Source: Bacilli bacterium
GTDB taxonomy: Bacteria > Bacillota_I > Bacilli_A > RF39 > UBA660
NCBI GenBank assembly: GCA_016293205.1
Contig: JAEDES010000004.1
Location: 4,321-68,320, forward strand
Direction of reading: 5' to 3'
Length of the DNA: 64,000 nt
Of this stretch, positions 7,372 to 46,220 are shown piece by piece (position 1 is the first letter of the stretch; each line of letters begins with the position of its first letter). The position numbers were made by a program, and so were the translations under genes. The notes under the pieces were generated by a model that had not been told where the DNA came from, ran no database searches, and worked only from the letters and a program-made list of their open reading frames with translations.

Positions 7372-7384
7372 TCATTTTTTGTGA

Positions 7385-7921: not shown

Positions 7922-8058
7922 GTTGCCTCCTTAATTATTTTTATATTATATCATATGATATTTATAATTCTAGTTAATATTGACAAGTTTACATATTGAT
8001 TTACTTTGTGTATTGTTAAAAAAATATATTTATTTTATTATATTATTAAGGTGATAAT

Positions 8059-15825: not shown

Positions 15826-16206
15826 CTATTCATCATAATTCCATAATCCAAGTTTTCCTTTTATTGGGATTGGCTTATCATACTTCTTTACATTTTCTAA
15901 TTTCCAAGCGTATGTTTCTACATGATTACTTCTACCATATACTATAGGATCTATATCACGTAGTTCTTTATTAAATTTTTCATCCACTAAGATACAATCT
16001 ACTAATTCTGCTTCTCCTATTATGGCACCTAATTCATAATTACAATTATATGATTCAAATCTTTTGACCATATCTTTTTCTAGAGACATTCCAGCATGTA
16101 TTAATATTTTTCCTCGATATTTGGTTTTCCAACTTCTAAATTCATATTTCTTATAACCATCTACTATAAGAGATGCCCATGGTTGTTTTATGGTTAGTGC
16201 TTTCAT
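15826..16206 (-). CDS. ASCH-domain protein
   Basis: MKALTIKQPWASLIVDGYKKYEFRSWKTKYRGKILIHAG is the typical ASCH/PUA-like N-terminus. Begins 1 nt after the GT2 gene stop. Confidence 0.8.
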   Translation of the reverse strand: MKALTIKQPWASLIVDGYKKYEFRSWKTKYRGKILIHAGMSLEKDMVKRFESYNCNYELGAIIGEAELVDCILVDEKFNKELRDIDPIVYGRSNHVETYAWKLENVKKYDKPIPIKGKLGLWNYDE

Positions 16207-22176: not shown

Positions 22177-23181
22177 TTATGCCTTATAACTTTCTTTATA
22201 TTTTCCTGTTTTTATATTATTTATCCAATCTTGGTTAGAAACATACCAATCGATTGTTTCTTTTATTCCATCTTCAAAATTATATGTTCTTTCCCAACCA
22301 AGTTCTTTTTCAACTTTTGATGAATCAATTGCGTACCTTAAATCATGTCCAGGTCTATCAGTTACAAATGTTATTAAACTTTCTGGTTTATTAAGTTGCT
22401 TTAGTATTGTTTTTACAACATCTAAATTTGTTCTTTCGCTATGTCCGCCTAAATTGTAAACCTCACCGATTTTTCCATTTCTTAAGATTAAATCTACTCC
22501 AACATTATGATCGTGTACATGAATCCAATCTCTAACATTTTCGCCTTTTCCGTATACTGGAATTGGTTCATCATTTAACGCTTTACTTATTACTACTGGA
22601 ATAAGTTTTTCCGGAAATTGATATGCTCCATAGTTGTTTGAACATCTTGAAATAGTTGCTGGAAAATTAAACGTTCTGCAATATGCCAATACAAGCAAAT
22701 CAGCACTTGCTTTAGATGCAGAATAAGGACTTGATGTATGAATTGGATTATTTTCAGTAAATAGTAGGTCAGTTCTATCTAATGGTAAATCTCCATATAC
22801 TTCGTCAGTTGATACTTGATGATATCTTTTAACATCATGTCTTCTGCATGCATCCATTAGTGTTTGTGTTCCAATGATATTAGTTGTTAAGAATATACTT
22901 GGATTTTTGATAGAATTATCAACGTGACTTTCAGCTGCAAAATTAATTACAGCATCAAACTTTTCTTCATCAAATAATTTTTCTACTAACTCTTTGTCTG
23001 TTATATCTCCTTTAACAAATTTAAAATTTTTCTTATCAGCAATTGGTTTTAAGTTTTCATAGTTACCAGCATATGTTAATGCATCTAAACATACATAAAA
23101 GTCTTCTTCATACTTATTAACTACATAATGTAGGTAATTACTTCCTATAAACCCTGCTCCACCTGTTACTAATATTTTCAT
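22177..23181 (-). CDS. rfbB: dTDP-glucose 4,6-dehydratase
   Basis: GGAGFIGSN, STDEVYGD, YSASKA (YxxxK), and RPGHDLRYAID near the C-terminus. Confidence 0.95.
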   Translation of the reverse strand: MKILVTGGAGFIGSNYLHYVVNKYEEDFYVCLDALTYAGNYENLKPIADKKNFKFVKGDITDKELVEKLFDEEKFDAVINFAAESHVDNSIKNPSIFLTTNIIGTQTLMDACRRHDVKRYHQVSTDEVYGDLPLDRTDLLFTENNPIHTSSPYSASKASADLLVLAYCRTFNFPATISRCSNNYGAYQFPEKLIPVVISKALNDEPIPVYGKGENVRDWIHVHDHNVGVDLILRNGKIGEVYNLGGHSERTNLDVVKTILKQLNKPESLITFVTDRPGHDLRYAIDSSKVEKELGWERTYNFEDGIKETIDWYVSNQDWINNIKTGKYKESYKA

Positions 23182-23557: not shown

Positions 23558-26092
23558 TTAATTATCTATTAGCAGTAAAAATATTTCTGATGCTGTCCAC
23601 ATGTGTGATAAATATAAGTTTTTTTCACAATAATATTTTGAAACAAAGCATTCATTTTTTATTTTTCCTGGTGTTGTTGTATCTCCACCTTCATAACTCA
23701 ATGGGTATATTTCATCTAAAATATACACTGTACCATATTGTTTATAATGATATGATGCCCAACTTAAATATGGATATATTCTCGAATCAAATGGTTCGGA
23801 TGTGCTAATTCGATCAGAGTACCAAGTTAGCATTGCATATCCATCATCAAATTTTGGAGGAGTTAAATCGAGATTAATGCCTACTTTTTTTGCTCCATAT
23901 AGTGCAAGAACAGTTGGATAATATTTTTGGACTAATCCATCTACATTCCCTTCAATGGTTCCATCAGATGATTTTAGGTGCTCAATTTCTCTGATAATTT
24001 CTTTGACTAAATCATCACGCTTAACACCTGTTGCTCCAATCATATATAATAGTTCCCCTAAGTTATCTGTTTCATCAATATCTTCACTTCTCGAATTATC
24101 ATATATTTTTGTTTCTTTTTGTAACCATGGTACCAAAAGGCTCGTATTGTTTGTATATTCTAATACCATTGTACCTAGCATTCCATCCCTATACCATGGT
24201 GTTGTATACCCAAATAAATTAGGTTTTGGTACACTCCCATCTATATTAAATAATATTTCTTGATGTAATACTTTTAATACCTCTGAAAATTCATGATCTT
24301 TAAATTCTGGTAAATTTATTTTTAAATTACCTTTACTAAATGTTTCCACTTTATTATTGTCATCAATGAAAACGCCTTCTTCATTTTCATATATTTTAAT
24401 TATATTTCCATCTTTTTGTTTTAATAAAACCGTATACTCATTTGGAATAATTAATTCTTCTTCATATTCATATTTTCTCAGAACTTCCTGAGTTTTTAAA
24501 TCTATTAGCTTTCCTTTTTTATAAACAACTTTTCTACGATCTGCCATTCCAAAGAAAAATATTTGTAATTTTTCATCTCTATCTGAATAAGTTCTAATCA
24601 TATGAGTGTTTTTCATTTCTTTTAGTTGATTGATATAAATTCTTAGCTTATTACTATATGCACAGTATTCATCACAATTAGTTTGAACTGGTTTAGTATT
24701 AAGAATTTTATATCCCATAAGAGAAGAAATAATGATTATTAGTATTGTTAGTAAAGCAAATACTTTTTTCTTATTAAGCGTTAATAATACAATCAATATC
24801 ATCGAAATACTTATTATAATTATTGGAAGTGCTCTTACATTTTCAATTGGATTATATAACGGATATAAAGTTTTTATTGAAATATATATACTTCTTAAAC
24901 TGCATATAATTATAAAAAATATTATTCCAAAAACAATTTTTCTATCTTTTAAATTATATAATTTATTTAATACATAGGCAGTTAATAAAATAATTAAAAA
25001 ATTATAATGCGTCATATATAAAAATGCAATATTATTTCCGTAGAATAAATGGAGTGTGAAGTTAAATATATATGTTAGTAGCATAGCATAATATATTTTG
25101 TTTTTCTTTAAATTAATTTTTTCTTTAACTATATAATAAATGTTTAAACCATAGAATAGTATTGCCATAATAATAGAAATAATTGTTTCATATATAGAAT
25201 TTGTAAATATCATATAAACACCTGTTTTGGGAATAGTTAACTTAAACAAGTTGAATGTGTCAGCAAAATTTGAGTTTAATACATTTATTATTTTCTTAAA
25301 TGAAATGTCATATGTTATATAAATAGATTCTGCTTTTGCACCGTGAAAAATGTCATATAGCATTGTATTAAAGAAGTTTGGGGCAGTTGGCCATACCAAA
25401 TTTTGTAAATCTGCTAAAAATACAGAACAAATTACAGAACATGAAATAATAAATAATGATTTTAAAAATCTTTGATCAACTTTTTTATTTAAAAATACTA
25501 TAAAGAATATAACAATAATAAATTGAATGAAATTTGTTATTGTTACTGCAATACTTCCTATTCCTAATAATATTAATATTATCATATCATTAAAGTTCAT
25601 TGGTTTATCTACTTTATGTATAGCATAGTACCATAATAGAACAAGAAATAGTTGTGCATATACATATGTTTCTATTGATGACGAAAAAATTAGTTGAGCA
25701 TAATTAAATATAAATGCAATTATTAATATATTAATTAGAGATTGTTTTTTTGTTATTTTTTCTAGTATTTTATATACTATAACTGCTGATGTTGCAGTTA
25801 TTATGCTTTGAATTAATGGTATTGTTAACGAAAAGTCATTTATGCTTAGATTAATTATTCTAACTAATGGCTGAAATAATATTACAAATAATGGATGTAC
25901 TGAAACTCTTGAGTGATTGTATGCTCGCGATGTTAAATCTCCTAATACTCTTGGACAATCCATATCAAATAAAACATTCCAAAATTTTGATGTTCCTAAA
26001 TAATATGTAATAACTAAACCTAATAAAAAATAAATGATAAAACTTGTCAGAAATATCAGAATTTCTTTCTTATACTTTTTTATAAATTTCAT
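23558..26092 (-). CDS. large polytopic membrane protein (about 12-14 TM, GT-C-like layout) with a ~380-aa C-terminal domain carrying GH15-like six-hairpin motifs
   Basis: Hydrophobic N-terminal 460 aa. The C-terminal domain contains TPWYRDGMLG, DNLGELLYM and SHMWTASEIFLLL. It is monocistronic, sitting between a promoter and a terminator. Confidence 0.6.
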   Translation of the reverse strand: MKFIKKYKKEILIFLTSFIIYFLLGLVITYYLGTSKFWNVLFDMDCPRVLGDLTSRAYNHSRVSVHPLFVILFQPLVRIINLSINDFSLTIPLIQSIITATSAVIVYKILEKITKKQSLINILIIAFIFNYAQLIFSSSIETYVYAQLFLVLLWYYAIHKVDKPMNFNDMIILILLGIGSIAVTITNFIQFIIVIFFIVFLNKKVDQRFLKSLFIISCSVICSVFLADLQNLVWPTAPNFFNTMLYDIFHGAKAESIYITYDISFKKIINVLNSNFADTFNLFKLTIPKTGVYMIFTNSIYETIISIIMAILFYGLNIYYIVKEKINLKKNKIYYAMLLTYIFNFTLHLFYGNNIAFLYMTHYNFLIILLTAYVLNKLYNLKDRKIVFGIIFFIIICSLRSIYISIKTLYPLYNPIENVRALPIIIISISMILIVLLTLNKKKVFALLTILIIIISSLMGYKILNTKPVQTNCDEYCAYSNKLRIYINQLKEMKNTHMIRTYSDRDEKLQIFFFGMADRRKVVYKKGKLIDLKTQEVLRKYEYEEELIIPNEYTVLLKQKDGNIIKIYENEEGVFIDDNNKVETFSKGNLKINLPEFKDHEFSEVLKVLHQEILFNIDGSVPKPNLFGYTTPWYRDGMLGTMVLEYTNNTSLLVPWLQKETKIYDNSRSEDIDETDNLGELLYMIGATGVKRDDLVKEIIREIEHLKSSDGTIEGNVDGLVQKYYPTVLALYGAKKVGINLDLTPPKFDDGYAMLTWYSDRISTSEPFDSRIYPYLSWASYHYKQYGTVYILDEIYPLSYEGGDTTTPGKIKNECFVSKYYCEKNLYLSHMWTASEIFLLLIDN

Positions 26093-27070: not shown

Positions 27071-27805
27071 TCATTTCATTTGTTTATTATAATATTCATT
27101 ACAAATTTCTTTTGCACTACCTATTTTAACTAATGTTCCATTTTCAATCCATACTACTCTATCACATAATTCTTTAATTGATTCAAGTGAATGTGATACA
27201 TATAATACAGTTGTTCCTCCTTTGATCATTTCCATCATTTTATTTTTACTTTTTTCTTGAAATTTAATATCACCAACTGATAATATTTCGTCAACAATTA
27301 ATATTTCTGGTTCTACTACAGTAGCGATAGAAAAAGCTAATTTAGCAATCATTCCTGAAGAGAAGTTTTTAACTGGTACATCCAAAAAATCTTTTAGTTC
27401 TGAAAATTCTACTATTTCGTTGAATTTTTCGTCTATGAATTTTTTAGAATACCCTAAAATTGCCCCATTTAAATAAATATTTTCTCTAGCAGTTAATTCA
27501 AGGTCAAAACCAGCACCTAATTCTATCATTGGCGAAATAACGCCATTTACTGTTACTTTTCCTTTAGTTGGTTTCATAACTCCACTTACTACTTTAAGTA
27601 AAGTTGATTTTCCAGCACCATTACTTCCAATTAACCCAATTACCTCGCCTGGTTTTACATCAAAAGAAATGTTTTTCAACGCCCAAAAATCAGTTTTCTT
27701 TGGTCTTCTTTTTCTATCAAATATTGAAATGAATGCTTCTTTTATGGAGAAGTTTTTTTCAATACCTAAGTTAAATTTCATCGATACATTTTCTATTTTA
27801 ATCAT
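27071..27805 (-). CDS. tagH: ABC transporter ATP-binding protein, TagH/Wzt-type polysaccharide or teichoic-acid exporter
   Basis: Walker [10 protein letters not shown], signature FSSGM, Walker B ILIVDE. No C-terminal carbohydrate-binding extension. Confidence 0.88.
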
Positions 27806-27818
27806 TTAATAACTCCTC

Positions 27819-28631
27819 TTAAATATAATATATAAATTTGTCTTGTTTTTTCTTAAATACTATTGTTCCAACAACTAATGCAATTATTGCATAAACAACA
27901 CATAATATTAGGTTTAATGCTGATGGGCAATTTCCATATAGAACAATACTTCTTGTTGCTGTCAAGAATTGATATAATGGATTAAATTGAAATAAGAATT
28001 GTAATTTATCTGGTATAATTTCTATGCTATAAAATATTGGAGTAAAGTATTGCCATATAGTTGTAATAATTCCATAGATATAGAAAATATCTCTTAAAAA
28101 AACTGATGTGCATGCTAAAAATAATCCTATTCCTATTGTGAACAAGAATAAGCATAAAAATATTAGTGGTAATAATAAATAATAAAAATTAATCGATGCC
28201 GGATATGTACCTAAACCGAATTGTGTTAATATAATTATTGCAAACCAAGGTATTAATGTTAAAAGAAAATTTATTCCTACAAATAAACATTTTCCCAACG
28301 GAAATATGTATTTTGGAATATAAACCTTATTTATTAAACTAAAATTAGTAACAACTGAAACCATCGCGACACTTGTTGCTTCACTGAAGTATTGAAACAT
28401 AATAATTCCTGTCATTAAATACACTAAATAGTTAATTCCTTCAACTTGAAATCTAAACATATTTGAGAATACTAACGCCATTACTGCCATCATTAGAATT
28501 GGATACAGTAAGCTCCATAAAATTCCTAATACTGATCTTTTATATTTAACTTTAAAATCTCTTAAGATTAATTGACTCATTAGAAATTTAAATCTTTTAA
28601 AGTTTGCCATTATGTTTTTAAATGTTGTCAT
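27819..28631 (-). CDS. tagG: ABC-2 type transporter permease, TagG/Wzm-type
   Basis: 270 aa with six TM helices. The N-terminal LILRDFKVKYKRSVLGILWSLLYP motif is typical of ABC-2 polysaccharide exporters. Confidence 0.85.
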   Translation of the reverse strand: MTTFKNIMANFKRFKFLMSQLILRDFKVKYKRSVLGILWSLLYPILMMAVMALVFSNMFRFQVEGINYLVYLMTGIIMFQYFSEATSVAMVSVVTNFSLINKVYIPKYIFPLGKCLFVGINFLLTLIPWFAIIILTQFGLGTYPASINFYYLLLPLIFLCLFLFTIGIGLFLACTSVFLRDIFYIYGIITTIWQYFTPIFYSIEIIPDKLQFLFQFNPLYQFLTATRSIVLYGNCPSALNLILCVVYAIIALVVGTIVFKKKQDKFIYYI

Positions 28632-28729: not shown

Positions 28730-29686
28730 TTATTTATCTTCTAAATTCTCAGAAATTATATATCTTGGTCTTGCTTTTGTTTCTTGATACATCTTTCCAA
28801 TATATTCTCCGATTATTCCAATACAAATCATTTGTATTCCACCTATAAACCAAATTGAAATTGATAAGAATGTCCATCCATCAACTGTATTTCCTAATAT
28901 CTTTTGTACAATAGAATATATCATAATTGCGATACTTACAAATAAAATAATAAATCCAAGAACACATATAAATCTTAAAGGTTTTGTACTAAATGATGTA
29001 ATTCCATCCCATGCAAAATTTAACATTTTCTTTAATGGATATTTAGATTCTCCTGCAAATCTTTCATTTCTTTCATAATAAACAATATCAGATTTAAATC
29101 CTACTAAAGGAAACATTCCTCTTAAAAATAAATTTACTTCTTTGTAATTTGAAAATTCTTCTAATACTCTTTTAGATGTTAGTCGATAATCTGCATGATT
29201 ATATACGCAATCTACTCCTAATTTTTTCATTACCTTGTAGAAACCTTCTGCTGTTACTCTCTTAAAGAATGTATCTTTCTTTCTGGCACTTCTCACACCA
29301 TAAACAATTTCGCATCCTTCATGATATTTATCAATCATTGCTTCTATTGCATTAATATCATCTTGAAGATCTGCATCCATACTAATTACTACATCAGCAT
29401 AGTTTTTAGCAGTCATTAGTCCACCTAGTAAGGCATTTTGATGACCCCTATTTCTTGATAGCGTAATTCCAGTAAATAATTCTTCTTTTTCATTTATTTC
29501 TTTAATTAGTTCCCAAGTCTTATCTTTTGAACCATCATTGACATACATTACTCTACTTTTGTTAGATATTTTCTTCGCTTTTATCATTGCTTGTAATTTT
29601 GTTTTTAATTGTTTTGTAGTTTCATGTAAAACTTCTTCTTCGTTATAACACGGAATTACTAAATATAGAATAGTATCTTTCTTCAT
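28730..29686 (-). CDS. GtrB/CsbB-type GT2 polyprenyl-phosphate glycosyltransferase
   Basis: LVIPCYNEEEVL, NDGSKD, DADLQDD, and two C-terminal TM helices. Start at the ATG at 29684-29686 after GAGGTGA. Confidence 0.85.
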   Translation of the reverse strand: MKKDTILYLVIPCYNEEEVLHETTKQLKTKLQAMIKAKKISNKSRVMYVNDGSKDKTWELIKEINEKEELFTGITLSRNRGHQNALLGGLMTAKNYADVVISMDADLQDDINAIEAMIDKYHEGCEIVYGVRSARKKDTFFKRVTAEGFYKVMKKLGVDCVYNHADYRLTSKRVLEEFSNYKEVNLFLRGMFPLVGFKSDIVYYERNERFAGESKYPLKKMLNFAWDGITSFSTKPLRFICVLGFIILFVSIAIMIYSIVQKILGNTVDGWTFLSISIWFIGGIQMICIGIIGEYIGKMYQETKARPRYIISENLEDK

Positions 29687-29819
29687 CTTTCTCACCTCAA
29701 TAATTTTCATTTCTTTTATCTCATTAGCTATAGTCTTGTTTTCAAACTAAAATATTATAGTAAATATTGATATAAATACTACTAAAAATATACTGTATAA
29801 TTTATTTTTTAAATTATCA

Positions 29820-31910
29820 CTACTTTCTTAATAAAAATTGTAGTACTTTATTATCTTTATCATCTGTTGCAACAAAGTTTGTAATAAAAGTAGCACATTC
29901 TTTTCCTTCAAATTGTTTAAAAGTTTTGTAACTATCTGCATATTGGGGTTCATTATTCTTATAATTTAAATATGTATTTTTTAATGATCTATAAAACTCA
30001 TTAAAATTTGTCATAAATGCTAATAATAAAATAACTATTAAGAATTTTTGTTTTAAGAATACTTTTTTATCTTTCTTATTTATTTCATCTAAATATTTTA
30101 GTACTAATATATATAATACTAATAATAATGGAATTGTTGCCCTATTTCCTAAATCTGCTCCGCCAATGTAAAATAGTGGGGCTATTGTAAAAAATAGGAA
30201 ACACATAATAATTTGTTTATAATTCTTTTTATTAATTATTATTATGTATATGAAAAATTCTAAAACTATAAAGGCTATGTAGTTAATTAGAACTTCTTTT
30301 AAATTACCATTATTTATTGCATCTACTATTCTCATTCCTTTTAAAGACTCATTTAATGTATACATGAACACAACTGGTAATACAGAAATACATCCAAAAA
30401 AGTTCTCTATAGTTAATAATGATTTAATTCTGTCAAAATCAATAAACTTATCTAATCTTTTTCCAAAAATTATATAAGTAAATATTAAGTATAAAAATCC
30501 TAGCATTGGAAATGGTCCATATGGAACTAATAAGGCAAAGTAAAATCCACATTTCCTATAATCTTTTTCTTGTAAGAATAGCATTACTAATATCCATGTT
30601 GGTATGCTTTGATTAAACACCCAAAATAGTTGAGTAATAAAGCTAGACATACAGAATGATCCCATAGATGTATCTATATGAGTTGTACCAATAGCAGGTA
30701 GAGTCGAATGATAATAGTAATTTTGAATAACTAAATGTCCTATAATATTTAATCCACCAAAGGCAATAAATATAAAGAAATATCTATATTTTATATTTTT
30801 CATAAATCTCACCAAGTAATAGAAAAATATAAGTGTTCCTATTGTTTGCCATAATAACATAAATAATGATCCAACTTTAAATCCTAATATTTTTCCAACA
30901 GCTGCTCCTGGTAACCAAAAAGCAAAGTAATAATTTAAAAATCCTGCATTTCCAAATATTTTACTTTCATATGCAAGGTTGGAATAATCATATCTTACTG
31001 GCCATGAATTATAGATAAGGTCTTTAAAAATTGCGTTTCTTCCGTGATAATCCCAATTTTGTTGAAATATTCCACCAGCTCCTGACATTAAATTTAATAC
31101 AATTATCATCAATACAAAAAATATTATTTTTTTCTTATTAAATATTGTTTGGTATTCTTCTTGAGTTAGTGGTTTAAACTTTTTTATCGTTAAGTATGTT
31201 GCCGTAAACAACATTATTATACAAGGAATAGAAATTAGTCTATTAAACCAAAAGAATAATTGCATTGATATTGGAATAACTAAATATAATAGACCAAATA
31301 TCAATAAATATTTATCCCAGTTAATTTTTTTTTTAATATTTCCTTCTCTATCATCTTTTAAATCGTAGATAGTATTCTTTTTTACTAAATATGCATCAAT
31401 AGATAAATCCATCATTGGCTTATCTGACATTGAATCTGAATAAAAAGCTTTTAAATTTTTATACTCTGTCTCTTCTAAAAATCTCTTCACCTTTTCTTTA
31501 CCATGACAATTTTTTGATTCAAATTTTCCTGTGTACTTATTTACTTTTGTTGCAATTATTTTTACTTTTAATTTTTTTTCTAATGGTTTAAGTAAAAATT
31601 CAGGCGACGCTGAAATAATTACATCAGATTTATCTTTTTGTTTTAAATACCATTGTTTAATTTTAGAGTAGTTAATTTTCCAAAAATCTTTAATGTAATC
31701 ATCTACATTATCAATTCTTTTTAAAAACGAGAAAATATATTCTTTACATTTTGTTTTATCTATTAATCCTAATATATATAAAATTAGTCCATATATTTGA
31801 ATGGGTAGATTTAAAAGCACTTTTTTATTTCTTTTAACTGAATATAAATAAAAGTCTACACTTGAGTCTCCATCATATATTGTTTCATCAAAATCATATC
31901 CATTTATCAT
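29820..31910 (-). CDS. HAD-family phosphatase domain (N-terminal ~195 aa) fused to a ~500-aa polytopic membrane domain (putative GT-C-like transferase)
   Basis: HAD motifs DFDETIYDG (DxDxT), ISASP, and K...YSDSMSDKP. About 13 hydrophobic helices follow. ATGA overlap with the upstream UbiA-like gene. Confidence 0.7.
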   Translation of the reverse strand: MINGYDFDETIYDGDSSVDFYLYSVKRNKKVLLNLPIQIYGLILYILGLIDKTKCKEYIFSFLKRIDNVDDYIKDFWKINYSKIKQWYLKQKDKSDVIISASPEFLLKPLEKKLKVKIIATKVNKYTGKFESKNCHGKEKVKRFLEETEYKNLKAFYSDSMSDKPMMDLSIDAYLVKKNTIYDLKDDREGNIKKKINWDKYLLIFGLLYLVIPISMQLFFWFNRLISIPCIIMLFTATYLTIKKFKPLTQEEYQTIFNKKKIIFFVLMIIVLNLMSGAGGIFQQNWDYHGRNAIFKDLIYNSWPVRYDYSNLAYESKIFGNAGFLNYYFAFWLPGAAVGKILGFKVGSLFMLLWQTIGTLIFFYYLVRFMKNIKYRYFFIFIAFGGLNIIGHLVIQNYYYHSTLPAIGTTHIDTSMGSFCMSSFITQLFWVFNQSIPTWILVMLFLQEKDYRKCGFYFALLVPYGPFPMLGFLYLIFTYIIFGKRLDKFIDFDRIKSLLTIENFFGCISVLPVVFMYTLNESLKGMRIVDAINNGNLKEVLINYIAFIVLEFFIYIIIINKKNYKQIIMCFLFFTIAPLFYIGGADLGNRATIPLLLVLYILVLKYLDEINKKDKKVFLKQKFLIVILLLAFMTNFNEFYRSLKNTYLNYKNNEPQYADSYKTFKQFEGKECATFITNFVATDDKDNKVLQFLLRK

Positions 31911-32779
31911 AATAAATATAGCACTCCCCCCATAATTAAGACATATAATATAACGGTCCCAATCAATATCTTATCACCTAGTATTACTTCTATTGGATCT
32001 CCATGCGAATCCTTTTCAATATTAAGACTATATAATTGTAATATAACTAATACTAATGGTACTGTCCAAAATAAGTAATCATTTCCTATTCTAGTGATTG
32101 TGGTAGGATCTACACACCACAATGTATAAGATACTACTGCTAAAGCTAAAGAAACATACATATTTTTATCTAAAAATTCTTTATTATATAGTTCTAGTAC
32201 TTTTCTACTTTTTTCTCCATTTTTAATAATTTCGTTTCTTCTTTTACCAAAACCTAAATAAAATGATCCAAAAATTATCATTAAATATAACCATTTCGAT
32301 ACTTCAATATCATTAACTATTCCACCATACATCACTCTAAATAAGAATCCTGAAACCAAAATAACAACATCAATTATTGGTATGTGTTTTAGCCATTTGC
32401 TATATAAGATATTTAATATTAAATACACTACTGGTATTATTGCAATACCAATATTGTTATTTTTAATATAAGTAATTGTTATCATTGCTAACAATAGCAA
32501 TGATAACACAAATATTATGTTATAAGCATTTTTTATACTTATAGCACCTGATGCTAGTGGCCTATTCTTTTTTACAGGATGACTTCGATCCTTTTCTATA
32601 TCATTAATGTCATTTATTATATATACAATTGATGATGTAAATGAAAATATAAAAAAAGCTATTGTTGTTGTTAAAAGATAATTTAAATTAAATATATTTT
32701 TACTAAAGAATATTGGTAAAAAAACTAGCCCATTTTTAAGCCAATGCTTTACCCTAATTAGTTTAACGTATTTTTTCAT
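31907..32779 (-). CDS. UbiA-superfamily prenyltransferase resembling polyprenyl-phosphate 5-phosphoribosyltransferase (DPPR synthase type)
   Basis: IINDINDIEKDRSHPVKKNRPLASG plus eight to nine TM helices. Start at the ATG at 32777-32779, 7 nt after GGAGGT; the track start is a GTG two codons upstream. Confidence 0.75.
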   Translation of the reverse strand: MKKYVKLIRVKHWLKNGLVFLPIFFSKNIFNLNYLLTTTIAFFIFSFTSSIVYIINDINDIEKDRSHPVKKNRPLASGAISIKNAYNIIFVLSLLLLAMITITYIKNNNIGIAIIPVVYLILNILYSKWLKHIPIIDVVILVSGFLFRVMYGGIVNDIEVSKWLYLMIIFGSFYLGFGKRRNEIIKNGEKSRKVLELYNKEFLDKNMYVSLALAVVSYTLWCVDPTTITRIGNDYLFWTVPLVLVILQLYSLNIEKDSHGDPIEVILGDKILIGTVILYVLIMGGVLYLL

Positions 32780-35462
32780 TTGCACTTACCTCCAGTCTGT
32801 TATGATACATAACTTTTTTATTTACTTCTGATAATTCTATTGCTCTTGTGTATCTAATTTTTTTATCATTCAAATTGTAATAAAATCCATATAGTTCGGG
32901 CTTAACTAATTTAACTTGTGGATTATCCATTTTTTGAAGTGTTTTTATGTCTCTTTCTACTTCAATAAAATATCTAATATGCAAATAATTGGTTGCAAAA
33001 AAAACTAATGTGTTTAATCCTATCGCTCCAATTATTAGTAATATACCTACATATGAAATAATTTTGTTTTTAAAATATTTTACTGTAATTGTCGCTAATA
33101 AAATAGTTCCAATTACATATAAATACATTTGTGGTACATATCTTGCCCACCAATATTCACCTACTAATATCATAGAAATAATTATTGTTGCGATGGATAA
33201 AAAAACATATTTAATACTTTCTTTTTCATTCTTAACCAATTTAATTAAACATATTATAAAAACTATTGTTGAAAATATAAATATTAATGCAAAAAATGGC
33301 CCGAACCCTGCTATTCTTACATCTGGTGAAAGTAATTCACTTATTTCACTTTTATATAGTTGAGTTGGTAACTTTAACTTTGGTTCTTTTCCACTGTCTT
33401 GTAATATGTTTTGCGTTTGTGAGAATAGTGACCAAATAAACTTTTGTGGTCGAGATATTTTACTGAATATAGCTGGTTGCATTGTTGTAATGATATCAAC
33501 TTTATCTTTTCCTATTAATGGATACAACGGATTTATATGATCAATGGTATTCTTTACATATGAATTGGCACCTACTAAAAATACTGCTATACCAAAAACA
33601 ATAATGAAGTTTCTTGTTATTATTAAAAACTTGTTCCAAAAGTCTTTTTCTTTTAAATATTTAAATAACCAATAAAAATAGAACACTGCGGCAATTACTC
33701 CTGAATATAATAAACCAGTAAATTTTAAATTTACAAAAATGGAAGCGGTTGCTGCTATCATAAACCATATTAAATTATTTTGTTTTTTCATTGGATTTAT
33801 TGTAAATAATAGTAACAATTCGATTGCAAATAATATTCCCATCAGACTATCTAAATAATATGTAAATATTTGAGATAGTGTTATTGGATTTAGTGCAATT
33901 AATATAGATATTAATATTGAAAAGAACTTAGAAGTAACTTCTTTTAAAATATTATAAATTACTAATACTAGTACAATTGATAATAATAAAGTAATGCATT
34001 TTCCGCTTTCAATATTACCAGTCATACTATAAATAGCTGCTGCACTAATCCAAGTTGCTTTTGGATAATGTTCCATCCACAAATCTAATCTAGTTTCTTT
34101 TTCAATTGGAATCACATTATTATTCGTTTTTTGAAAGTCTCTTACATCTTCATATAATGGATTCCATCCATTTTTTATAAACGCAATGGATGACTTATGA
34201 TAGCTATTTCCGTCTTCTGTTAAATCATATGTATGATTATATATAAATGGTAATAATATCATCAATAGTAAGTAAATAATTGATATTATGAATTTGCTTT
34301 TTTTTGAATTATTACTCTTACAGATGTACATAATCATAGGTACAGCAATTGCTATAGTTTGAATAACAGGAAGCACTTTTGTAATACCTAATATTTGTAA
34401 TACTGAATACACCGTTAGTACAATAAAAAAATATGATAATATCATTGCACTTAACTGAAATGATGGTGATGTAGTTACGTTATTTATAATTTCGTCAATA
34501 TTTTTTTTTGATGTTTTTTCTTTCTTAAAATGATAATAATTACAATAAATCTTAGTTAATATTTTATTCTTTTCAATCGTTCTTTTTAATATACTTCTAT
34601 TTTCATAATACTTATTATCTTTATAATCAGGTATATTTTTTTCCATATATGAAAATGCTTCATTTATAAATCTATTTCCGATTTTGCTATCTTTTTGCAC
34701 TCTTTGTTGAATTGTATAATTTGTTAAAATTCTTACAGTTAGTTTATTCACAACTTCTGTTAATTCTTTATTTTTTTTAAAATTTTTTCTTATGATATCA
34801 ACAATTTTTATAATATCAAATACTCTTTCATCTCTTATAGTTGTTTCACTATTACTATGAATAACATAATAGTGAAGATATTCATTTAACTTAGAGATTT
34901 TATTGGCATTTTTAATTATTTCAGTAACAAATGGTGTGTCTTCATATTTTAATTCTTCATTAAATCTTGTATTGTTTTTATCAATCAATTCTCTTTTTAT
35001 TAGTTTATTACATGGCCCTAAATTGATATCTAACAATAGATTGGGATTTTCTTTTAATGATGACGATTTAAAATTATTAATAGTAACTTCTTTTAATGTT
35101 TCTTCTACTCTATAAAAATCAAATACTACTAAATCAGATTTTTCTTTTAGTGCTTTATTATATAATTTTTCACAAGCATTAATATCTAAGTAATCATCAC
35201 TATCTAAGAACATTAGATATTTACCCGTAGCTTTATCTATTCCAAAGTTTCTTGTTTTACCAATACCTTGATTTTTATTTTTAAAGTATTTAATTCTTTT
35301 ATCTTTATAAGATTTTATTATATCTTCTGATGAATCTGTTGAACCATCATTTATAAGAATAAATTCTAATTCCTTTTTTGTTTGATTTACTAATGAATCA
35401 ATACATTTATTTAGATATTTTTCTGCGTTATAAATTGGAACAATAATACTTATATCTTTCAT
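32763..35462 (-). CDS. GT2 glycosyltransferase (N-terminal ~300 aa) fused to a ~560-aa polytopic membrane domain
   Basis: IIVPIYNAEKYL, NDGSTD and LDSDDYL (DxD). About 13-15 TM helices follow. Confidence 0.75.
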   Translation of the reverse strand: MKDISIIVPIYNAEKYLNKCIDSLVNQTKKELEFILINDGSTDSSEDIIKSYKDKRIKYFKNKNQGIGKTRNFGIDKATGKYLMFLDSDDYLDINACEKLYNKALKEKSDLVVFDFYRVEETLKEVTINNFKSSSLKENPNLLLDINLGPCNKLIKRELIDKNNTRFNEELKYEDTPFVTEIIKNANKISKLNEYLHYYVIHSNSETTIRDERVFDIIKIVDIIRKNFKKNKELTEVVNKLTVRILTNYTIQQRVQKDSKIGNRFINEAFSYMEKNIPDYKDNKYYENRSILKRTIEKNKILTKIYCNYYHFKKEKTSKKNIDEIINNVTTSPSFQLSAMILSYFFIVLTVYSVLQILGITKVLPVIQTIAIAVPMIMYICKSNNSKKSKFIISIIYLLLMILLPFIYNHTYDLTEDGNSYHKSSIAFIKNGWNPLYEDVRDFQKTNNNVIPIEKETRLDLWMEHYPKATWISAAAIYSMTGNIESGKCITLLLSIVLVLVIYNILKEVTSKFFSILISILIALNPITLSQIFTYYLDSLMGILFAIELLLLFTINPMKKQNNLIWFMIAATASIFVNLKFTGLLYSGVIAAVFYFYWLFKYLKEKDFWNKFLIITRNFIIVFGIAVFLVGANSYVKNTIDHINPLYPLIGKDKVDIITTMQPAIFSKISRPQKFIWSLFSQTQNILQDSGKEPKLKLPTQLYKSEISELLSPDVRIAGFGPFFALIFIFSTIVFIICLIKLVKNEKESIKYVFLSIATIIISMILVGEYWWARYVPQMYLYVIGTILLATITVKYFKNKIISYVGILLIIGAIGLNTLVFFATNYLHIRYFIEVERDIKTLQKMDNPQVKLVKPELYGFYYNLNDKKIRYTRAIELSEVNKKVMYHNRLEVSANEKIR

Positions 35463-35477: not shown

Positions 35478-36398
35478 TTATTTAGTTAATTTATAAAATA
35501 ACTTAGGTGAAATTTTTAAGAATTGTTTTTTTATTTTTCTTGGTAATGTATCTACTAATAAGTTATCATATACTTTTTCTTCTTTTAATTTTTTCTTAAA
35601 TTCTTTATAATCTTTCCCCTTTAATTCACATATCTTAAGAATAGCACTGTTAGCAGCAAAGCTTTTAAATACTTTTGAATCTAATTTTGTTTTATTTATT
35701 TCTGATACTAAATATTTATAATGTTCAAACATATCAGATACTTTTTTCTTTACTTTGTCATAATCCTTATTGTTCATTGTACTCATAGGTCTTTGAACAT
35801 AGTTATATCCAATATATTCAATACTATTAACTACATTAGCTTTTATAATTATTAATGGAATTAATCCATAGTCTTCATGAACCATACCTTGCTTAAACGC
35901 AAATTTATTTTTATTCCAGTAATCTCTTTTAATAGCATATGGACAAGCAGCATCTACAATACGATATTTACATATTTCGGTGAAGGCATCTACTCCATTT
36001 AAACCTGAGAATCCTTTTTCATTATGTTCTAAGATGCCATCTTGCCCTTCGTAAATTTCTTGCATTTGGAATCTTACAACATCTGGATTATTTTTAAGAC
36101 TTTTATTAATTTCTTTTAATAAATCTTTTCTCCAATAATCATCTGAATCTAAAAATATTAAATATTCTCCTGATGCTTTTTTTATTCCATTATTTCTAGC
36201 TGCACTTTGTCCTTGATTTTTTTGTTCTATTATTTTTACATCATATTTTTTTACAATATCCATGCTATTATCTGGTGTCCCATCATTAACAACAATTACT
36301 TCAAAGTCTTTATATGTCTGATTAAAAACACTATCAAGACATTTCTTAATATATTTTTCCACGTTATATACTGGAATAATTATACTGAACTTTGGCAT
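35478..36398 (-). CDS. GT2 glycosyltransferase
   Basis: IIIPVYNVEKYI, NDGTPD and LDSDDYW. The start codon shares 1 nt with the stop of the upstream gene. Confidence 0.85.
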   Translation of the reverse strand: MPKFSIIIPVYNVEKYIKKCLDSVFNQTYKDFEVIVVNDGTPDNSMDIVKKYDVKIIEQKNQGQSAARNNGIKKASGEYLIFLDSDDYWRKDLLKEINKSLKNNPDVVRFQMQEIYEGQDGILEHNEKGFSGLNGVDAFTEICKYRIVDAACPYAIKRDYWNKNKFAFKQGMVHEDYGLIPLIIIKANVVNSIEYIGYNYVQRPMSTMNNKDYDKVKKKVSDMFEHYKYLVSEINKTKLDSKVFKSFAANSAILKICELKGKDYKEFKKKLKEEKVYDNLLVDTLPRKIKKQFLKISPKLFYKLTK

Positions 36399-38710
36399 TA
36401 TATCACCTCATCAAACATTTCTTCAAATTTTAACATTTTTTTATTTTGAACTTTATTTAAGTCAATTGATTTTACTTTACTATTTTTATTTAAAATTTCT
36501 TTTACTTCTTCTACCATTTTCTTTTCATCTTTAGATACTATAAAAGCATAATCTTTTCCCATATTTATTGCATCATCAGATACATCAATTGTTGTAATAA
36601 TTTTCTTATTTAGAACAATTGCCTCTAGATATGTTACTGGGAATCCTTCATAGTCAGATGTTAAAATAATGTAATCTGCTTGTTTCATATATGGATATGG
36701 ATTTGATTTTTTTCCAAAAAACGTTACTCTAGAAGTAATTTTATTTTTCTTTGTATATTCCTCATACATCTTTCTATCTGGTCCATCTCCAATAATCCAT
36801 AGTTCCATATTTTTTATTTCTTTTACTAGGTTTAATGCTCTAGTAAGTTTTTTAGAATGATCTTCTAATCTTCCTACAAATACAAATAATTTATGATTAT
36901 TATTTTTCTTTATATCAATTTCCTCTTTACTTGTTATCTTTATTGAGTCTATATCTATAAAGTTATTAATTGTTATTGATTTTTCAATCATATTCGGATA
37001 ATATTCTAAAAAGTCATTTTTTGATTCATTTGATACAAATATAAGTCTTTTGAATTTTTCGATATTTCTCGTATCAAAGAATTGTCTAAATTCTTTTTCA
37101 TCTTTATAAATATATGTATAGTTACTATGAACATAGAAGGCATTATTTTTTGATGAAACTAGTGCTAATTTGTTAGCACTGTAACTATAAGTTGCATAAC
37201 AACAACTAAAGTCATAGTTTTGATAATTTAAAATAGTATATATTAACTTTCTATACATATTTGTAACTTTTCTAATAATTACATTTTTGTGATTTGAAAC
37301 TTTTAATTCAGTTATATTTGCTTTAGAAATAATCTTTGGTAAGAATATACCTTTCTTTTCTTCTAATACTACATCAACATTATATTTGTCATAATTAATT
37401 CTATTTAATAAATTTACTAAAGCTTTTTCTATTCCGCCTATATCAAAATTTACTGCAGCAAACATTAAATCTTTTTTATTTCTTTTTGCTAACATAACAA
37501 TAATTACTGCTGCTATAAAGCTAACTGCTGGACCTGTAATTATATGACCTGTAAACATTGATAATATAATTATTAATAGTAATGAAACTAATCTCATGCA
37601 TCTATTAAAATCAGTTTTTTGTTTATCTTTTAAAACATTAAATAATACATAAACATAAATTCCAAAGTATAAGATAAACCCAATAAAACCATGTGAATAA
37701 TATATATCAAAATAATCCATTTCTACTGCTTTTTGTAATTTATTGTCTTGTGTATATCCAATTCCAAATATTTTTTCATATACCGAAGAATCTTTGTATA
37801 GTTCATTTTTATCTTCTAAAAAAGTTAATCTCTGACTAAATATAAAATGATCAATTAATTCATATTCAGTGAATACTTCAAATACATTATCAACTTCAAG
37901 AAAGTCTAAATGTACTTCAATATTTTTATAAAAATTTGTTTTTGGTAAAACTAACATTAAACTGATAAATCCAATAATTATTAATACTAAAGAATATACA
38001 ATTGGCTTATATGTTTTTTTCTTTATACAATGATAAAAATAATACATAAATATTGTTCCAAGAGTTATACATAACGATAATAAAGGTGTTTTTGTACCCA
38101 TCATTAGTATTACTACAAGGAATATAATTAACATTAATGTTTTCATTAGATATTTATTTTTTCCAGCTAAAAGAATAAACATAAATGGTGTTAATAAAGA
38201 AATAATTCCACTTATTTCATTTGCAGAGTTATAAAAACCTAATGTCCCGGCTTTTGTAATTTCATATGTTTTAAATCCGAAGTTAAATATTGTTGGAATA
38301 AATATACATATTAAATAAGTAAATAATGTTACTACTAAAGTTAAATTATTAATTTTAATTTTATCTCTTAATTCATATAATGAAATTAAAATAATAGGAA
38401 AATAGAAAGCTTTTACTAAACCTTGTATTTCTGCAAAATAACTTCCATCTTTATAAATAATAATTCCAATCAAATAAAGTATGGAGTAAAAGATAATACT
38501 TATATATACCCATAAACTTAATTTCTTTTTAAAGACAAATGTTGTTACATACATAATTAGTGCTAAAAATAATATTCTAATTATAATTCCTACTGTTATG
38601 TTGAAATCAAATAGGTTTACACATAATCCTGTTATTAAATCCAATATTGGTTGTAAAAGTATAAAGAAACTTACAATCTTACTTATATTTTTTTCAAGAA
38701 ATTTATTCAT
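36398..38710 (-). CDS. O-antigen ligase/polymerase-like (Wzy_C-type) membrane domain fused to a C-terminal GT4 glycosyltransferase
   Basis: About 11 TM helices with LMMGTKTPLLS and DIYYSHGFIGFILYFG (Wzy_C-like). The C-terminal domain has FVGRLEDHSKK...SDYEGFPVTYLEAI (GT4). Confidence 0.7.
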   Translation of the reverse strand: MNKFLEKNISKIVSFFILLQPILDLITGLCVNLFDFNITVGIIIRILFLALIMYVTTFVFKKKLSLWVYISIIFYSILYLIGIIIYKDGSYFAEIQGLVKAFYFPIILISLYELRDKIKINNLTLVVTLFTYLICIFIPTIFNFGFKTYEITKAGTLGFYNSANEISGIISLLTPFMFILLAGKNKYLMKTLMLIIFLVVILMMGTKTPLLSLCITLGTIFMYYFYHCIKKKTYKPIVYSLVLIIIGFISLMLVLPKTNFYKNIEVHLDFLEVDNVFEVFTEYELIDHFIFSQRLTFLEDKNELYKDSSVYEKIFGIGYTQDNKLQKAVEMDYFDIYYSHGFIGFILYFGIYVYVLFNVLKDKQKTDFNRCMRLVSLLLIIILSMFTGHIITGPAVSFIAAVIIVMLAKRNKKDLMFAAVNFDIGGIEKALVNLLNRINYDKYNVDVVLEEKKGIFLPKIISKANITELKVSNHKNVIIRKVTNMYRKLIYTILNYQNYDFSCCYATYSYSANKLALVSSKNNAFYVHSNYTYIYKDEKEFRQFFDTRNIEKFKRLIFVSNESKNDFLEYYPNMIEKSITINNFIDIDSIKITSKEEIDIKKNNNHKLFVFVGRLEDHSKKLTRALNLVKEIKNMELWIIGDGPDRKMYEEYTKKNKITSRVTFFGKKSNPYPYMKQADYIILTSDYEGFPVTYLEAIVLNKKIITTIDVSDDAINMGKDYAFIVSKDEKKMVEEVKEILNKNSKVKSIDLNKVQNKKMLKFEEMFDEVI

Positions 38711-38785: not shown

Positions 38786-38809
38786 AGTTCATATCAGTTG
38801 ATATGAACT
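38786..38809 (-). terminator. hairpin terminator after the GtrII-like gene
   Basis: Perfect AGTTCATATCA-GT-TGATATGAACT palindrome overlapping the TAG stop, followed on minus by ATTATTGTTTT. Confidence 0.55.
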
Positions 38810-40343
38810 ATCCTAACTTAACAACTAGAATATCATCTATATATTTAATACTTCCTTTATTTGGATATACTGGCATATTATTAATTTCCCATTGTTCTAT
38901 TTTATCTAAATATGGATTCTCTATTATATTTATATTAGCATATTGAAACATTTTAAGATAATAGTCATAGCGACCATATTCTCCTACATATAAAGAAAAA
39001 TCTTCTCCTGCGCCGGTTATTCTTCTTAGATTATCTGTTGCATTGTTAAATTCTATATTCATATTAGGGGACCCCTCTATGACAACTTTTGTTTTATTTG
39101 GAATATAGTCCTCAAAACTTTCAATACTATATATTACTCTATTCATATAGCTTTGCGTTTTTTCCTCAGCTATTTCTTTCATCATATATAAAGTGTTTGC
39201 CATTCTTACATTTCCTAATAAAATTATTGTTATAAGAGTAATACTTATCATCTTCAGTTTGTTATGTTTTTTATTATCAAAAATATATATTAATATAATA
39301 AATAAATTAGTTAACCACAAAGAGTAATGCATTAAATCATGACTCATACCATTTGTTAGTATTCTTGATATGTTCATTGAAAATGGTAGTAAAAAGATTA
39401 ATAATAATATTAGTATTTTTTCTTTTACTTTTATATTTTTGCTAAATACTTTACTTAAAATTATATATCCCGCTCCAACTATTAATACTATATTAATTAG
39501 TATTGTAATGATATCTGGATATAATGATGCTGGATAAATTATCGTTTTAATAGTATATAAATAACATAAAATTGTCTCTCTAATTATTTCAATCAAAGAC
39601 ATTTTGAATATAGTATCTAAAGAGTTATATGTTCCAGATGTTACACTTTTTTTAAATATAATTGGAATTAATTTTAATATTATAATATATATTAATCCTG
39701 CTAGAATAATCATTAATATTGCTCTTAACCCATTATTAAATACTGTTTTAAAATCTTCTTTTTTCAATAAATCTATTATTGAAACTATCATTATTAATGA
39801 TATAGCCATGGATAAATAACTCTGATATAAACCTAGCGATATAAATAATGGTATTGTTCCATATAGATACCCTTTTTTATGTTTTCTCCATAAAAATACA
39901 GCAATGACTGATGACATCATTGCAAACATATCAACATCCATATCTTCAATAAACACTCCGCATAAACTTATCATCGTAACATTTGCAACTAAAATACCTG
40001 GAGTTATAATTTTCATAATATGATTATCTTTATCAATATCAAATATTTTTAATATTAATATACTGGATATTGCAATATAGATTAACGATATAATTCCAAT
40101 TAACCAAGGAACAACTAATATTCCTCTTGTTAGATATATATATGTTGGATATAATATTCGTCCTAGCGATATTTTCCAATCAATTAGTCCATCATTTATA
40201 ATCGATTCCATAAGTGAGTCATGTGACAATGCACTATTTGCAAACATAAATCCATGGGTTATTATTCCCCATATAAATGTAATTATAAATATTGTTATTA
40301 TATAATTCTTTTCTTTTTTAATATAATTAAGTGCTTCTTTCAT
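38808..40343 (-). CDS. polytopic membrane protein, GtrII/glucosyl-transferase-II-like (putative extracytoplasmic GT-C type transferase)
   Basis: About 12 TM helices. The N-terminal ...GIITHGFMFANSALSHDSL... resembles that family as I remember it. Start moved to the ATG at 40341-40343 (MKEALNY), 7 nt after AAGGAG. Confidence 0.5.
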   Translation of the reverse strand: MKEALNYIKKEKNYIITIFIITFIWGIITHGFMFANSALSHDSLMESIINDGLIDWKISLGRILYPTYIYLTRGILVVPWLIGIISLIYIAISSILILKIFDIDKDNHIMKIITPGILVANVTMISLCGVFIEDMDVDMFAMMSSVIAVFLWRKHKKGYLYGTIPLFISLGLYQSYLSMAISLIMIVSIIDLLKKEDFKTVFNNGLRAILMIILAGLIYIIILKLIPIIFKKSVTSGTYNSLDTIFKMSLIEIIRETILCYLYTIKTIIYPASLYPDIITILINIVLIVGAGYIILSKVFSKNIKVKEKILILLLIFLLPFSMNISRILTNGMSHDLMHYSLWLTNLFIILIYIFDNKKHNKLKMISITLITIILLGNVRMANTLYMMKEIAEEKTQSYMNRVIYSIESFEDYIPNKTKVVIEGSPNMNIEFNNATDNLRRITGAGEDFSLYVGEYGRYDYYLKMFQYANINIIENPYLDKIEQWEINNMPVYPNKGSIKYIDDILVVKLG

Positions 40344-40362
40344 AAGTATACTCCTTATATAC

Positions 40363-40390
40363 ATTATAACATTATTATTTTCTTTGTAAA
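40363..40390 (-). promoter_or_regulatory. promoter of the GtrII-like gene
   Basis: Minus strand: TTTACA (40390-40385), 16 nt, TGTTATAAT extended -10 (40371-40363). Confidence 0.6.
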
Positions 40391-46186: not shown

Positions 46187-46220
46187 TTAAGGTAAGAGTA
46201 TAGGCTTAAGGAGGATGATT

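Follow-up and report, generated by a model that had tools for sequence, protein, structure and literature searches.

The mycobacterial decaprenyl-phosphate-arabinose pathway comprises the decaprenyl-phosphate phosphoribosyltransferase (DPPRS) Rv3806c, the PAP2 phosphatase Rv3807c, the DprE1/DprE2 pair, the GtrA-like protein Rv3789, and the Aft and Emb glycosyltransferases (GTs) of the GT-C class, and hexoses are added by the three-component GtrA/GtrB/GtrC-type systems of Shigella and Salmonella and by CsbB/YfhO and PgfS/PgfM in Firmicutes. A three-component system for pentofuranose side chains has been characterized in Citrobacter youngae O1/O2 (Kelly, Duong, Nothof, Lowary, and Whitfield, PNAS 2024; PMC11127046). 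There, ORF15, a UbiA-type polyprenyl-phosphate 5-phosphoribosyltransferase (PPPRS) preceded on the same chain by a HAD "PRP" domain, converts phosphoribosyl pyrophosphate (PRPP) to polyprenyl-phosphate-ribofuranose, the MATE protein ORF14 is the predicted flippase, and the GT-C enzyme ORF12, founder of family GT136, adds the sugar in the periplasm, with short-chain dehydrogenase/reductase (SDR) or DprE1/E2-type epimerases turning the donor into Xylf or Araf (PMC11127046). The same source reports candidate systems in other bacteria, including Gram-positive Bacillus, as well as a phage in which PRP is a separate gene, and summarizes the soluble, cytoplasmic gPRT-PRP ribofuranosyltransferases (Kelly et al. 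2022), which place beta-Ribf directly onto the glycan (PMC11127046). Here, we analyze a 64,000-nucleotide (64-kb) stretch of a Bacilli bacterium genome (contig JAEDES010000004.1; hereafter the window, GC ~25%) in which a gene for a UbiA-like membrane protein is followed by one for a HAD phosphatase fused to a polytopic membrane domain, termed Y. We estimate a probability of about 0.6 that this locus is a Firmicute version of the extracytoplasmic pentofuranosylation pathway, with the HAD domain fused to Y as the putative consumer of the lipid-linked sugar.

Both genes were found on the minus strand as originally predicted, the UbiA-type open reading frame (ORF) at 31907..32779 and the 696-aa ORF at 29820..31910, with the TGA stop of the former overlapping the ATG start of the latter (ATGA). 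The mechanically called UbiA ORF begins at a GTG at 32785, and the ATG at 32779, which has GGAGG 9 nt before it, is the more probable start, for a predicted PPPRS of 290 aa in the DPPR-synthase family of the UbiA superfamily. The upstream gene, which encodes an 899-aa protein, overlaps the UbiA start by 17 nt, and based on these start and stop overlaps, the three genes are translationally coupled.

By sequence, the UbiA-like protein is a clear homolog of the M. tuberculosis decaprenyl-phosphate phosphoribosyltransferase. Its alignment with Rv3806c (PDB 8j8j; E=3.2e-39, residues 6-287) covers both proteins from end to end, and the second-best PDB match is UbiA 4od4, a 4-hydroxybenzoate prenyltransferase, at E=1.4e-3. 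Among the three NCBIfam DPPRS models, it passes NF008978 ("decaprenyl-phosphate phosphoribosyltransferase"; 218.2 bits, cut-off 207) and scores under the cut-offs of NF008977 (217.6 bits, cut-off 234) and NF008976 (168.6 bits, cut-off 474), whereas the quinone, heme, chlorophyll, and all other non-DPPRS prenyltransferase models give at most 54 bits. The first Asp-rich motif, the NDxxDxxxD motif of loop II, reads as it had been quoted (N58-D-I-N-D62-I-E-K-D66...R75PLASG), and the Rv3806c motif that had been given for comparison (LVNDVRDVEADREHPTKRFRPIAAG) is indeed present in PDB 8j8j. N58, D59, D62, and D66 are equivalent to N247, D248, D251, and D255 of ORF15, which are required for activity both in vitro and in vivo (PMC11127046). 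In loop IV, G180-K-R-R-N-E185 aligns with GKRYAEL of Rv3806c, and K181-R182...E185 are kept. A PRPP synthetase gene also lies directly upstream of UbiA-HAD in 9/9 Saccharibacteria TM7-G3 loci with enough flanking sequence, which, coming from a single lineage, count as one observation.

Membership of the UbiA superfamily (PF01040, 72 bits) would also fit an ordinary quinone, heme, or other aromatic prenyltransferase, in which case the HAD fusion would be an unrelated housekeeping phosphatase. We regard this as extremely improbable, as it is effectively refuted by the score gap (at most 54 versus 168-218 bits, and 1.4e-3 versus 3e-39), and both the embedding of the UbiA gene in a translationally coupled wall-glycan operon and the linkage to PRPP synthetase in TM7 argue against it. 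The HMM scores and PDB E-values, which are far outside the range of chance, thus place the protein with the DPPR synthases and not with the quinone or heme prenyltransferases, in agreement with the assignment in the original prediction.

Residues 1-185 of the 696-aa fusion (31356..31910, minus strand) are a complete HAD-IB phosphatase domain, matching PF12710 (66 bits) and TIGR01488 (48.6 bits versus a cut-off of 45) and carrying the full set of four motifs that had been read from the sequence (D6xD8xT10, S100 in ISASP, K138, and D159/D163). When the fusion model was searched with Foldseek, the best match of this domain was 3fvv (E=1.6e-4), accompanied by SerB-type HADs. We predict that the domain acts as a cytoplasmic 5-phosphatase on polyprenyl-phosphate-ribose-5-phosphate, based on the domain type, the intact catalytic motifs, the strict synteny, and the precedent of ORF15. 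That a cytoplasmic HAD could stand in for the PAP2 phosphatase had been proposed, and the PRP domain of ORF15 provides direct experimental precedent (PMC11127046).

This HAD domain is a mobile module. A search with the fusion recovered full-length relatives at 55-73% identity and standalone copies of Y of 500 aa, and the nearest relatives of the window protein (at most 73% identical) come from gut metagenome-assembled genomes of uncultured Bacilli and Erysipelotrichaceae. In many other proteins, the same HAD (50-70% identical, always N-terminal, and beginning MINxYDFDxTIYDGDSS) is joined to different membrane domains, and clustering of these partners yields six families, namely Y, X, a PMT_2 type, a DUF6080 type (Z), YfhO, and the small family F3. 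HAD identity within a partner family (57-70%) is no higher than that between families (54-69%), and the HADs do not cluster by fusion partner; from these comparisons, the HAD is a single orthologous phosphatase module that has been repeatedly recombined with at least six membrane-domain families. Two tandem HAD fusions of one locus are 87% identical to each other. The phage collection gave a single match, an unannotated 6.6-kb fragment. Two loci (L008 7001-8248 and L009 1541-2788) encode a 415-aa fusion of this HAD with an SGNH/GDSL hydrolase, and no UbiA gene was seen beside it; the HAD-SGNH locus otherwise resembles L001, described below, and may be a deletion remnant or represent another use of the HAD.

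UbiA is followed by HAD, in many cases overlapping it by 4 bp, in L001, L002, L003, L049, L090, L092, and L094, as well as in most of the 35 genome loci with both genes. What accompanies this pair varies: UbiA is followed by HAD-PMT_2 in L001 and by HAD-YfhO in L002, L003-5 carry UbiA, a separate 191-aa HAD, and a separate Y (a standalone Y following UbiA and HAD is also found in L049), L094 has X, UbiA, HAD-Y, and HAD-F3, and L006-7 consist of an isolated pair in which HAD-DUF6080 precedes UbiA. In L092, an 818-aa protein encoded immediately after UbiA (6001-8457) contains Pfam HAD, GtrA, and PMT_2 domains in that order, a triple fusion that places a phosphatase, a flippase-type module, and a GT-C on one chain in the order of the pathway. 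The exopolysaccharide plasmid pF27D of Lactococcus cremoris (NZ_CP068515.2; L090 10596-13715) encodes a hypothetical protein, a PPPRS (47% identical), a standalone HAD-IB (52%), and a short GtrA (83 aa), the hypothetical protein being a 462-aa membrane protein unrelated to X, Y, or Z. PGAP names these plasmid homologs "decaprenyl-phosphate phosphoribosyltransferase" and "HAD-IB family phosphatase," and the L. cremoris carrier is a cultured, tractable host. In Saccharibacteria (TM7-G3, Nanosyncoccus nanoralicus; L026-L036, e.g., L031 3228-11737), homologs of Z, Y, and X form an adjacent block, and the genes for PRPP synthetase, UbiA, and HAD run the other way. The presence of the whole pathway set in these organisms is of note given their very reduced genomes.

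Across 80 species genomes with a Y homolog, UbiA occurs within 6 kb in 39, and both UbiA and HAD in 35. Every Y relative of at least 34% identity with enough flanking DNA is linked to UbiA, and X is found with nearly all close Y relatives. Where X and Z are both lacking, Y is the sole polytopic ORF within 6 kb in 10/17 UbiA-linked loci, and in Pseudoramibacter, UbiA, HAD, and Y form an isolated cassette outside any glycan locus. An unlinked homolog, such as that of Mediterraneibacter, lies among GT4, LicD, and GT2 genes. Since about half of the loci are without UbiA, the Y family is broader than, and not specific to, the ribose donor pathway.

Y itself occupies residues 186-696 of the fusion (29820..31355 including the stop, minus strand). 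The AlphaFold2 model has ~12-13 transmembrane (TM)-length helices past residue 190, matching the polytopic architecture described originally, and was predicted with high confidence (pLDDT 92.4 and pTM 0.88 for the full-length fusion; pLDDT 92 and pTM 0.92 for Y alone). Judged by homology searches, Y is an undescribed family: a Pfam search of 49 Y members at a relaxed threshold returned only noise, and neither a PDB sequence search with the fusion nor a profile search with Y found a match for it. DUF6773 was rejected as its identity, as the lone match scored 23.8 bits (cut-off 27) and was not common to other members. The relatives of Y span phyla at ~30% identity and share many invariant residues. 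Invariant or nearly invariant positions include Q284, D287, R291, N292, K340, E551, D586, R590, E638, and R641, and these conserved residues are identical in UbiA-linked and unlinked members. The best-conserved motif, S276-G-x-G-G...Q284-N-W-D287...R291-N292 (with N285 and W286), falls within a 68-residue loop following TM3 that also holds D297, which is conserved like D287 and R291. This loop is predicted to be extracytoplasmic because the HAD is cytoplasmic, there are two hairpin helices, and the TM2-TM3 loop is rich in K.

In Foldseek searches with the full-length model, the only appreciable membrane matches were STT3A (E=0.12, probability 0.90) and AftA (E=0.19, probability 0.87). Y was re-predicted alone so that the HAD would not dominate the search, which did not improve significance; the best structural match for this model was AftA, an arabinofuranosyltransferase (E=0.25, probability 0.63, TM-score 0.32), with all others at a probability of at most 0.15 and a TM-score of at most 0.17. 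None of the Foldseek matches to Y was significant; those to AftA and STT3A exceed noise yet fall under the usual level for a shared fold.

The window holds more than one candidate consumer, as two further membrane domains that were absent from the original prediction, X and Z, join Y. X is the C-terminal 579 aa (residues 321-899) of the 899-aa protein (32763..34502, minus strand), encoded directly upstream of and overlapping the UbiA gene, and is the synthase's neighbor of GT-C-fold type. It is 50% and 41% identical to genes with no Pfam match that lie directly upstream of UbiA in L001 and L003, respectively, and it is a divergent PMT_2-like GT-C, with an hhalign probability of 92.7% (E=4e-7) against the PMT_2 type and PF13231 matched by 9/24 X-family members; a PDB sequence and profile search with X gave only two chance-level GPCR matches (E 0.14-0.22). 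HAD-X fusions occur elsewhere, and X is also found standalone. The N-terminal part of the 899-aa protein is a cytoplasmic GT2 domain (34503..35462, minus strand; PF00535, 4.8e-38, aa 5-160), and the GT2-X fusion is confined to the closest relatives (P0121-P0126). A Leloir GT and a GT-C on one polypeptide is an unusual combination. Z, an 844-aa DUF6080-like membrane protein (23558..26092, minus strand), has no Pfam or NCBIfam match of its own. Over ~900 aa, it shares 31% identity with the membrane portions of P0087 and P0092, which are HAD-DUF6080 fusions, and its hhalign probability against the PMT_2 type is 71-88%. On these similarities, Z probably also uses the lipid-linked pentose, as the third candidate consumer.

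A DprE1/DprE2-like pair had been noted as absent next to the two genes, and the 64-kb window as a whole encodes neither such a pair nor a GalE-like or other pentose epimerase. The SDR at 22177-23181, the only one in the wall-glycan cluster, was rejected as an ORF13-like epimerase because it is a true dTDP-glucose 4,6-dehydratase (RfbB equivalog, 475 bits) paired with RfbA, and a FabG-like SDR at 4054-4803 was not counted as belonging to the system, as it lies 25 kb away among unrelated genes. With no epimerase gene in the window, ribofuranose is the default donor sugar and the most likely one. Some of the related loci do have GtrA (L003, L090, and L092, in the last of which it is fused between HAD and GT-C). 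A 126-aa ORF of the window (15826-16206) that was considered as GtrA proved to be an ASCH domain.

In the pathway we propose, the UbiA-type enzyme would move ribose-5-phosphate from PRPP to undecaprenyl phosphate (Und-P) at the cytoplasmic face, an activity predicted from its homology to Rv3806c and ORF15, and the HAD-IB domain of the coupled fusion would then strip the 5-phosphate to give Und-P-ribofuranose. This donor would next have to get to the outer face, in a window with no GtrA, SMR, or MATE gene. There, Y would act as an extracytoplasmic polyprenyl-phosphate-pentofuranose-dependent GT that transfers ribofuranose to a wall glycan, and X and Z would probably do likewise. The acceptor glycan would be built on undecaprenyl pyrophosphate (Und-PP), exported by a Wzm/Wzt-type ABC-2 transporter (27071..28631, minus strand, identified from the ORF translations), and anchored by a LytR-CpsA-Psr (LCP) enzyme.

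The weak link in this scheme, as in the original prediction, is the role of Y. We consider a transferase function for Y plausible but unproven, since it is deduced from equivalence and necessity: Y fills the slot held by recognized GT-C families in other HAD fusions, and it is often the sole polytopic partner, as in the isolated Pseudoramibacter cassette. The original prediction of the fused domain as a GT-C-like consumer is partly supported, genomic equivalence speaking strongly for it, while the fold test returned only AftA and STT3A at E>=0.12 and a TM-score of ~0.3, with no profile link. Several observations weigh against the pathway as proposed. Comparison of Y by hhalign with the PMT_2, YfhO, DUF6080, X, GtrII, and O-antigen-ligase sets gave probabilities below 4% throughout, so that neither hhalign nor Pfam nor PDB connects Y with a GT-C family by sequence or profile, and its best structural matches are weak (E>=0.12, TM-score ~0.3, root-mean-square deviation ~16 A). 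The conserved acidic loop of Y comes after TM3, whereas that of canonical GT-C enzymes comes after TM1. UbiA is missing within 6 kb of 41/80 Y-family loci, the HAD-SGNH fusion shows the HAD apart from any UbiA in view, and the HAD has no BLAST similarity to an ORF15-type PRP (N-terminal HAD) domain. The MATE, SMR/EamA, and GtrA families gave no match among window ORFs of at least 100 aa, nor did tblastn of two GtrA proteins against the window. An epimerase may also be encoded elsewhere in the genome, the 64 kb visible here being the scope of that search.

The lack of a GtrA, MATE, or SMR gene in the window raises the alternative that Y is the translocase (flippase or scramblase) of Und-P-ribofuranose and that X and Z are the real transferases. 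The HAD-Y fusion would then join the consecutive steps of dephosphorylation and flipping, much as the HAD of L092 is fused directly to a GtrA-type module ahead of the GT-C, and it would fit that X and Z have profile links to GT-C families where Y has none, that X accompanies nearly all close Y relatives, and that Z, Y, and X cluster in TM7. However, Y is the only nearby polytopic protein in 10/17 UbiA-linked loci without X or Z, the Pseudoramibacter cassette would be left with no transferase, and elsewhere the same HAD is joined directly to genuine GT-C families without any flippase module. Foldseek likewise gave no MOP, MATE, or SMR-like match above noise, with only GT-C enzymes standing out, and conservation in Y peaks in a loop that is predicted to be extracytoplasmic and contains many D, R, and N residues. 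We therefore consider a translocase role for Y unlikely. A second alternative is that Y functions as a polymerase or ligase (Wzy/WaaL-like) on Und-PP-linked glycans and that its fusion to HAD is incidental, the product of gene-order accident and cassette recombination and not a sign that it uses the ribose donor. The 41/80 loci without UbiA and HAD, the identity of the conserved residues in linked and unlinked members, and the Mediterraneibacter homolog, which among its GT4, LicD, and GT2 genes sits where a polymerase would be expected, are in keeping with this, as is the HAD-SGNH fusion as an example of the HAD joined to a non-GT partner. Yet the window locus depends on an ABC transporter and needs no Wzy, the UbiA-HAD-Y cassette exists outside glycan loci, all close Y relatives are tightly linked to UbiA, and the cross-phylum conservation of Y, with many invariant residues at ~30% identity, is unlike that of Wzy proteins. 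Together with the negative hhalign comparison of Y with the O-antigen-ligase-like domain of the window itself, this leaves a polymerase or ligase function with only a slim chance in our view.

If Y is instead the consumer in a pentofuranosylation pathway, a more far-reaching version can be imagined in which the HAD-membrane fusions are self-contained, dephosphorylating the donor, translocating it with no separate flippase, and transferring it. Y would then constitute a new GT family with no sequence relation to known GT-C enzymes, supplied with Und-P-ribofuranose by the phosphatase domain on its own chain, and Y, X, and Z together would build oligo- or poly-pentofuranosyl structures on wall glycans, both in gut Bacilli and in Saccharibacteria. 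This extension is speculative, and we doubt that it holds in full. If it were true, the Y/X/Z assembly would be a Firmicute and candidate phyla radiation counterpart of mycobacterial arabinan assembly, not the decoration of a glycan with single side chains.

These genes belong to a single long wall-glycan cluster on the minus strand, spanning ~40.4 kb down to 13 kb of the window. In the direction of transcription, it encodes a GtrII-like GT-C (38808-40364, minus strand; PF14264), an O-antigen-ligase-like/GT4 fusion, a GT2, the 899-aa GT2 and membrane protein, the 290-aa UbiA-like protein, the 696-aa HAD-membrane fusion, a GtrB/PgfS-like polyprenyl-phosphate-hexose synthase (28730..29710, minus strand; NF047588 PgfS, 5.5e-72; ArnC-like, 2.6e-42), Wzm, Wzt, RfbA, the 844-aa protein, RfbB, a DegT aminotransferase, and more GTs, with the LCP enzyme nearby. 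ABC_tran and ABC2_membrane genes are likewise present in the related loci L001, L003, and L094. The GtrB/PgfS-like and GtrII-like genes are a separate hexose side-chain system, the second lipid-linked sugar system of the cluster, for which no GtrA gene was found in the window. The 770-aa fusion at 36398-38710 (minus strand) joins a membrane domain resembling O-antigen ligases (PF13425) to a GT4/GT1 domain, and a fusion of the same type heads L001, L008, and L094. On the plus strand, an LCP enzyme (46215-48296) ends in a PASTA domain and also has a region with weak likeness to phosphonate-binding domains, while a 653-aa protein (40481-42442) has four PASTA repeats and no Pfam match to a kinase or transpeptidase; both PASTA architectures are unusual, and both genes adjoin the wall-glycan locus. 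A 691-aa sulfatase-family membrane protein (48997-51072, minus strand), LtaS-like by domain type, has as neighbors a BrkB-like protein and a GGDEF protein that carries a solute-binding domain.

The original prediction had also held that such a pathway was uncharacterized in low-GC Gram-positive wall polysaccharide synthesis. Given its characterization in Citrobacter in 2024 and its prediction in Bacillus, this claim now applies only to experiments in Firmicutes. Our literature searches for DPPRS homologs in Firmicutes, Lactococcus, or Saccharibacteria or for HAD-GT-C fusions brought up only Kelly 2024 and the commentary on it, and found no paper on a HAD fused to a transferase or on Firmicute or Saccharibacteria versions of the pathway. 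What is new relative to the known systems is the mobile HAD on a putative consumer, the several candidate consumers, the undescribed family Y, and a window with no dedicated flippase gene. If the proposed pathway is correct, PRPP-derived lipid-linked pentofuranose donors would be widely used in wall and exopolysaccharide synthesis. Uncultured gut Bacilli, Clostridia (Ruminococcus and Pseudoramibacter), Saccharibacteria, and plasmids of dairy Lactococcus would be among the hosts, and ribofuranosylated wall glycans are not known to have been tied to genes in any of these. The HAD module (MINxYDFDxTIYDGDSS...) also serves as a bioinformatic tag that marks at least six polytopic families as candidate pentofuranosyltransferases, Y, X, and F3 among them being without any annotation, and it thus offers a concrete route to function for large families of "hypothetical membrane proteins" and possibly to new CAZy GT families. 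Finally, the recurrent absence of a flippase gene would make the crossing of Und-P-sugars testable in a minimal three-gene cassette.

Compared with the cytoplasmic gPRT-PRP enzymes, the window pathway would share PRPP as the ultimate source of ribose and a HAD phosphatase for removal of the 5-phosphate, the difference being that the ribose would first be placed on polyprenyl phosphate. With the Gtr-type hexose systems, it would have in common a sugar donor on a lipid monophosphate, formed on the cytoplasmic side and spent on the outer side by a polytopic transferase; the HAD fusion partners include YfhO-type GT-C domains, and the GtrB/PgfS-like and GtrII-like genes provide a true Gtr-type example in the same window. 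Unlike these systems, its donor synthase is a predicted UbiA-type user of PRPP and not a GT2 using UDP-sugars, and an extra phosphatase step would be required.

The likeness to the Citrobacter system extends to a homologous UbiA-type synthase, predicted here to depend on PRPP, in which the catalytic N/D residues are conserved. It also extends to a HAD-superfamily domain, here a predicted 5-phosphatase, on the same chain as one of the pathway's membrane proteins, to large polytopic enzymes that are predicted to glycosylate an ABC-exported glycan outside the cytoplasm, and to the lack of an epimerase, implying ribofuranose. In contrast to ORF15, the window HAD is fused to the putative consumer and not to the synthase, and its lineage is another one, HAD-IB, for which BLAST showed no similarity to an ORF15-type domain. 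The window also differs in having no MATE or SMR flippase gene, in offering up to three candidate consumers (Y, X, and Z) where Citrobacter has one, and in belonging to a Gram-positive host, with wall polysaccharide as the target. Y has no detectable relation to ArnT-like or GT136-type GT-C enzymes, a comparison made without a GT136 sequence.

From the mycobacterial pathway, the locus departs in its phosphatase, which is a HAD and not a PAP2 enzyme, in its carrier, presumably C55 and not C50, in having no DprE1/E2 in the window, so that arabinose is not expected, and in having no GtrA-like gene there, such a gene being present in the Lactococcus, L003, and L092 versions. The two nevertheless begin with homologous enzymes (E=3e-39) and would follow the same logic of a lipid-phosphate-ribose-5-phosphate that is dephosphorylated and then used for extracytoplasmic GT-C transfer, with several different polytopic transferases in mycobacteria, several candidates for this role here, and the mycobacterial transferase AftA as the best structural match for Y.

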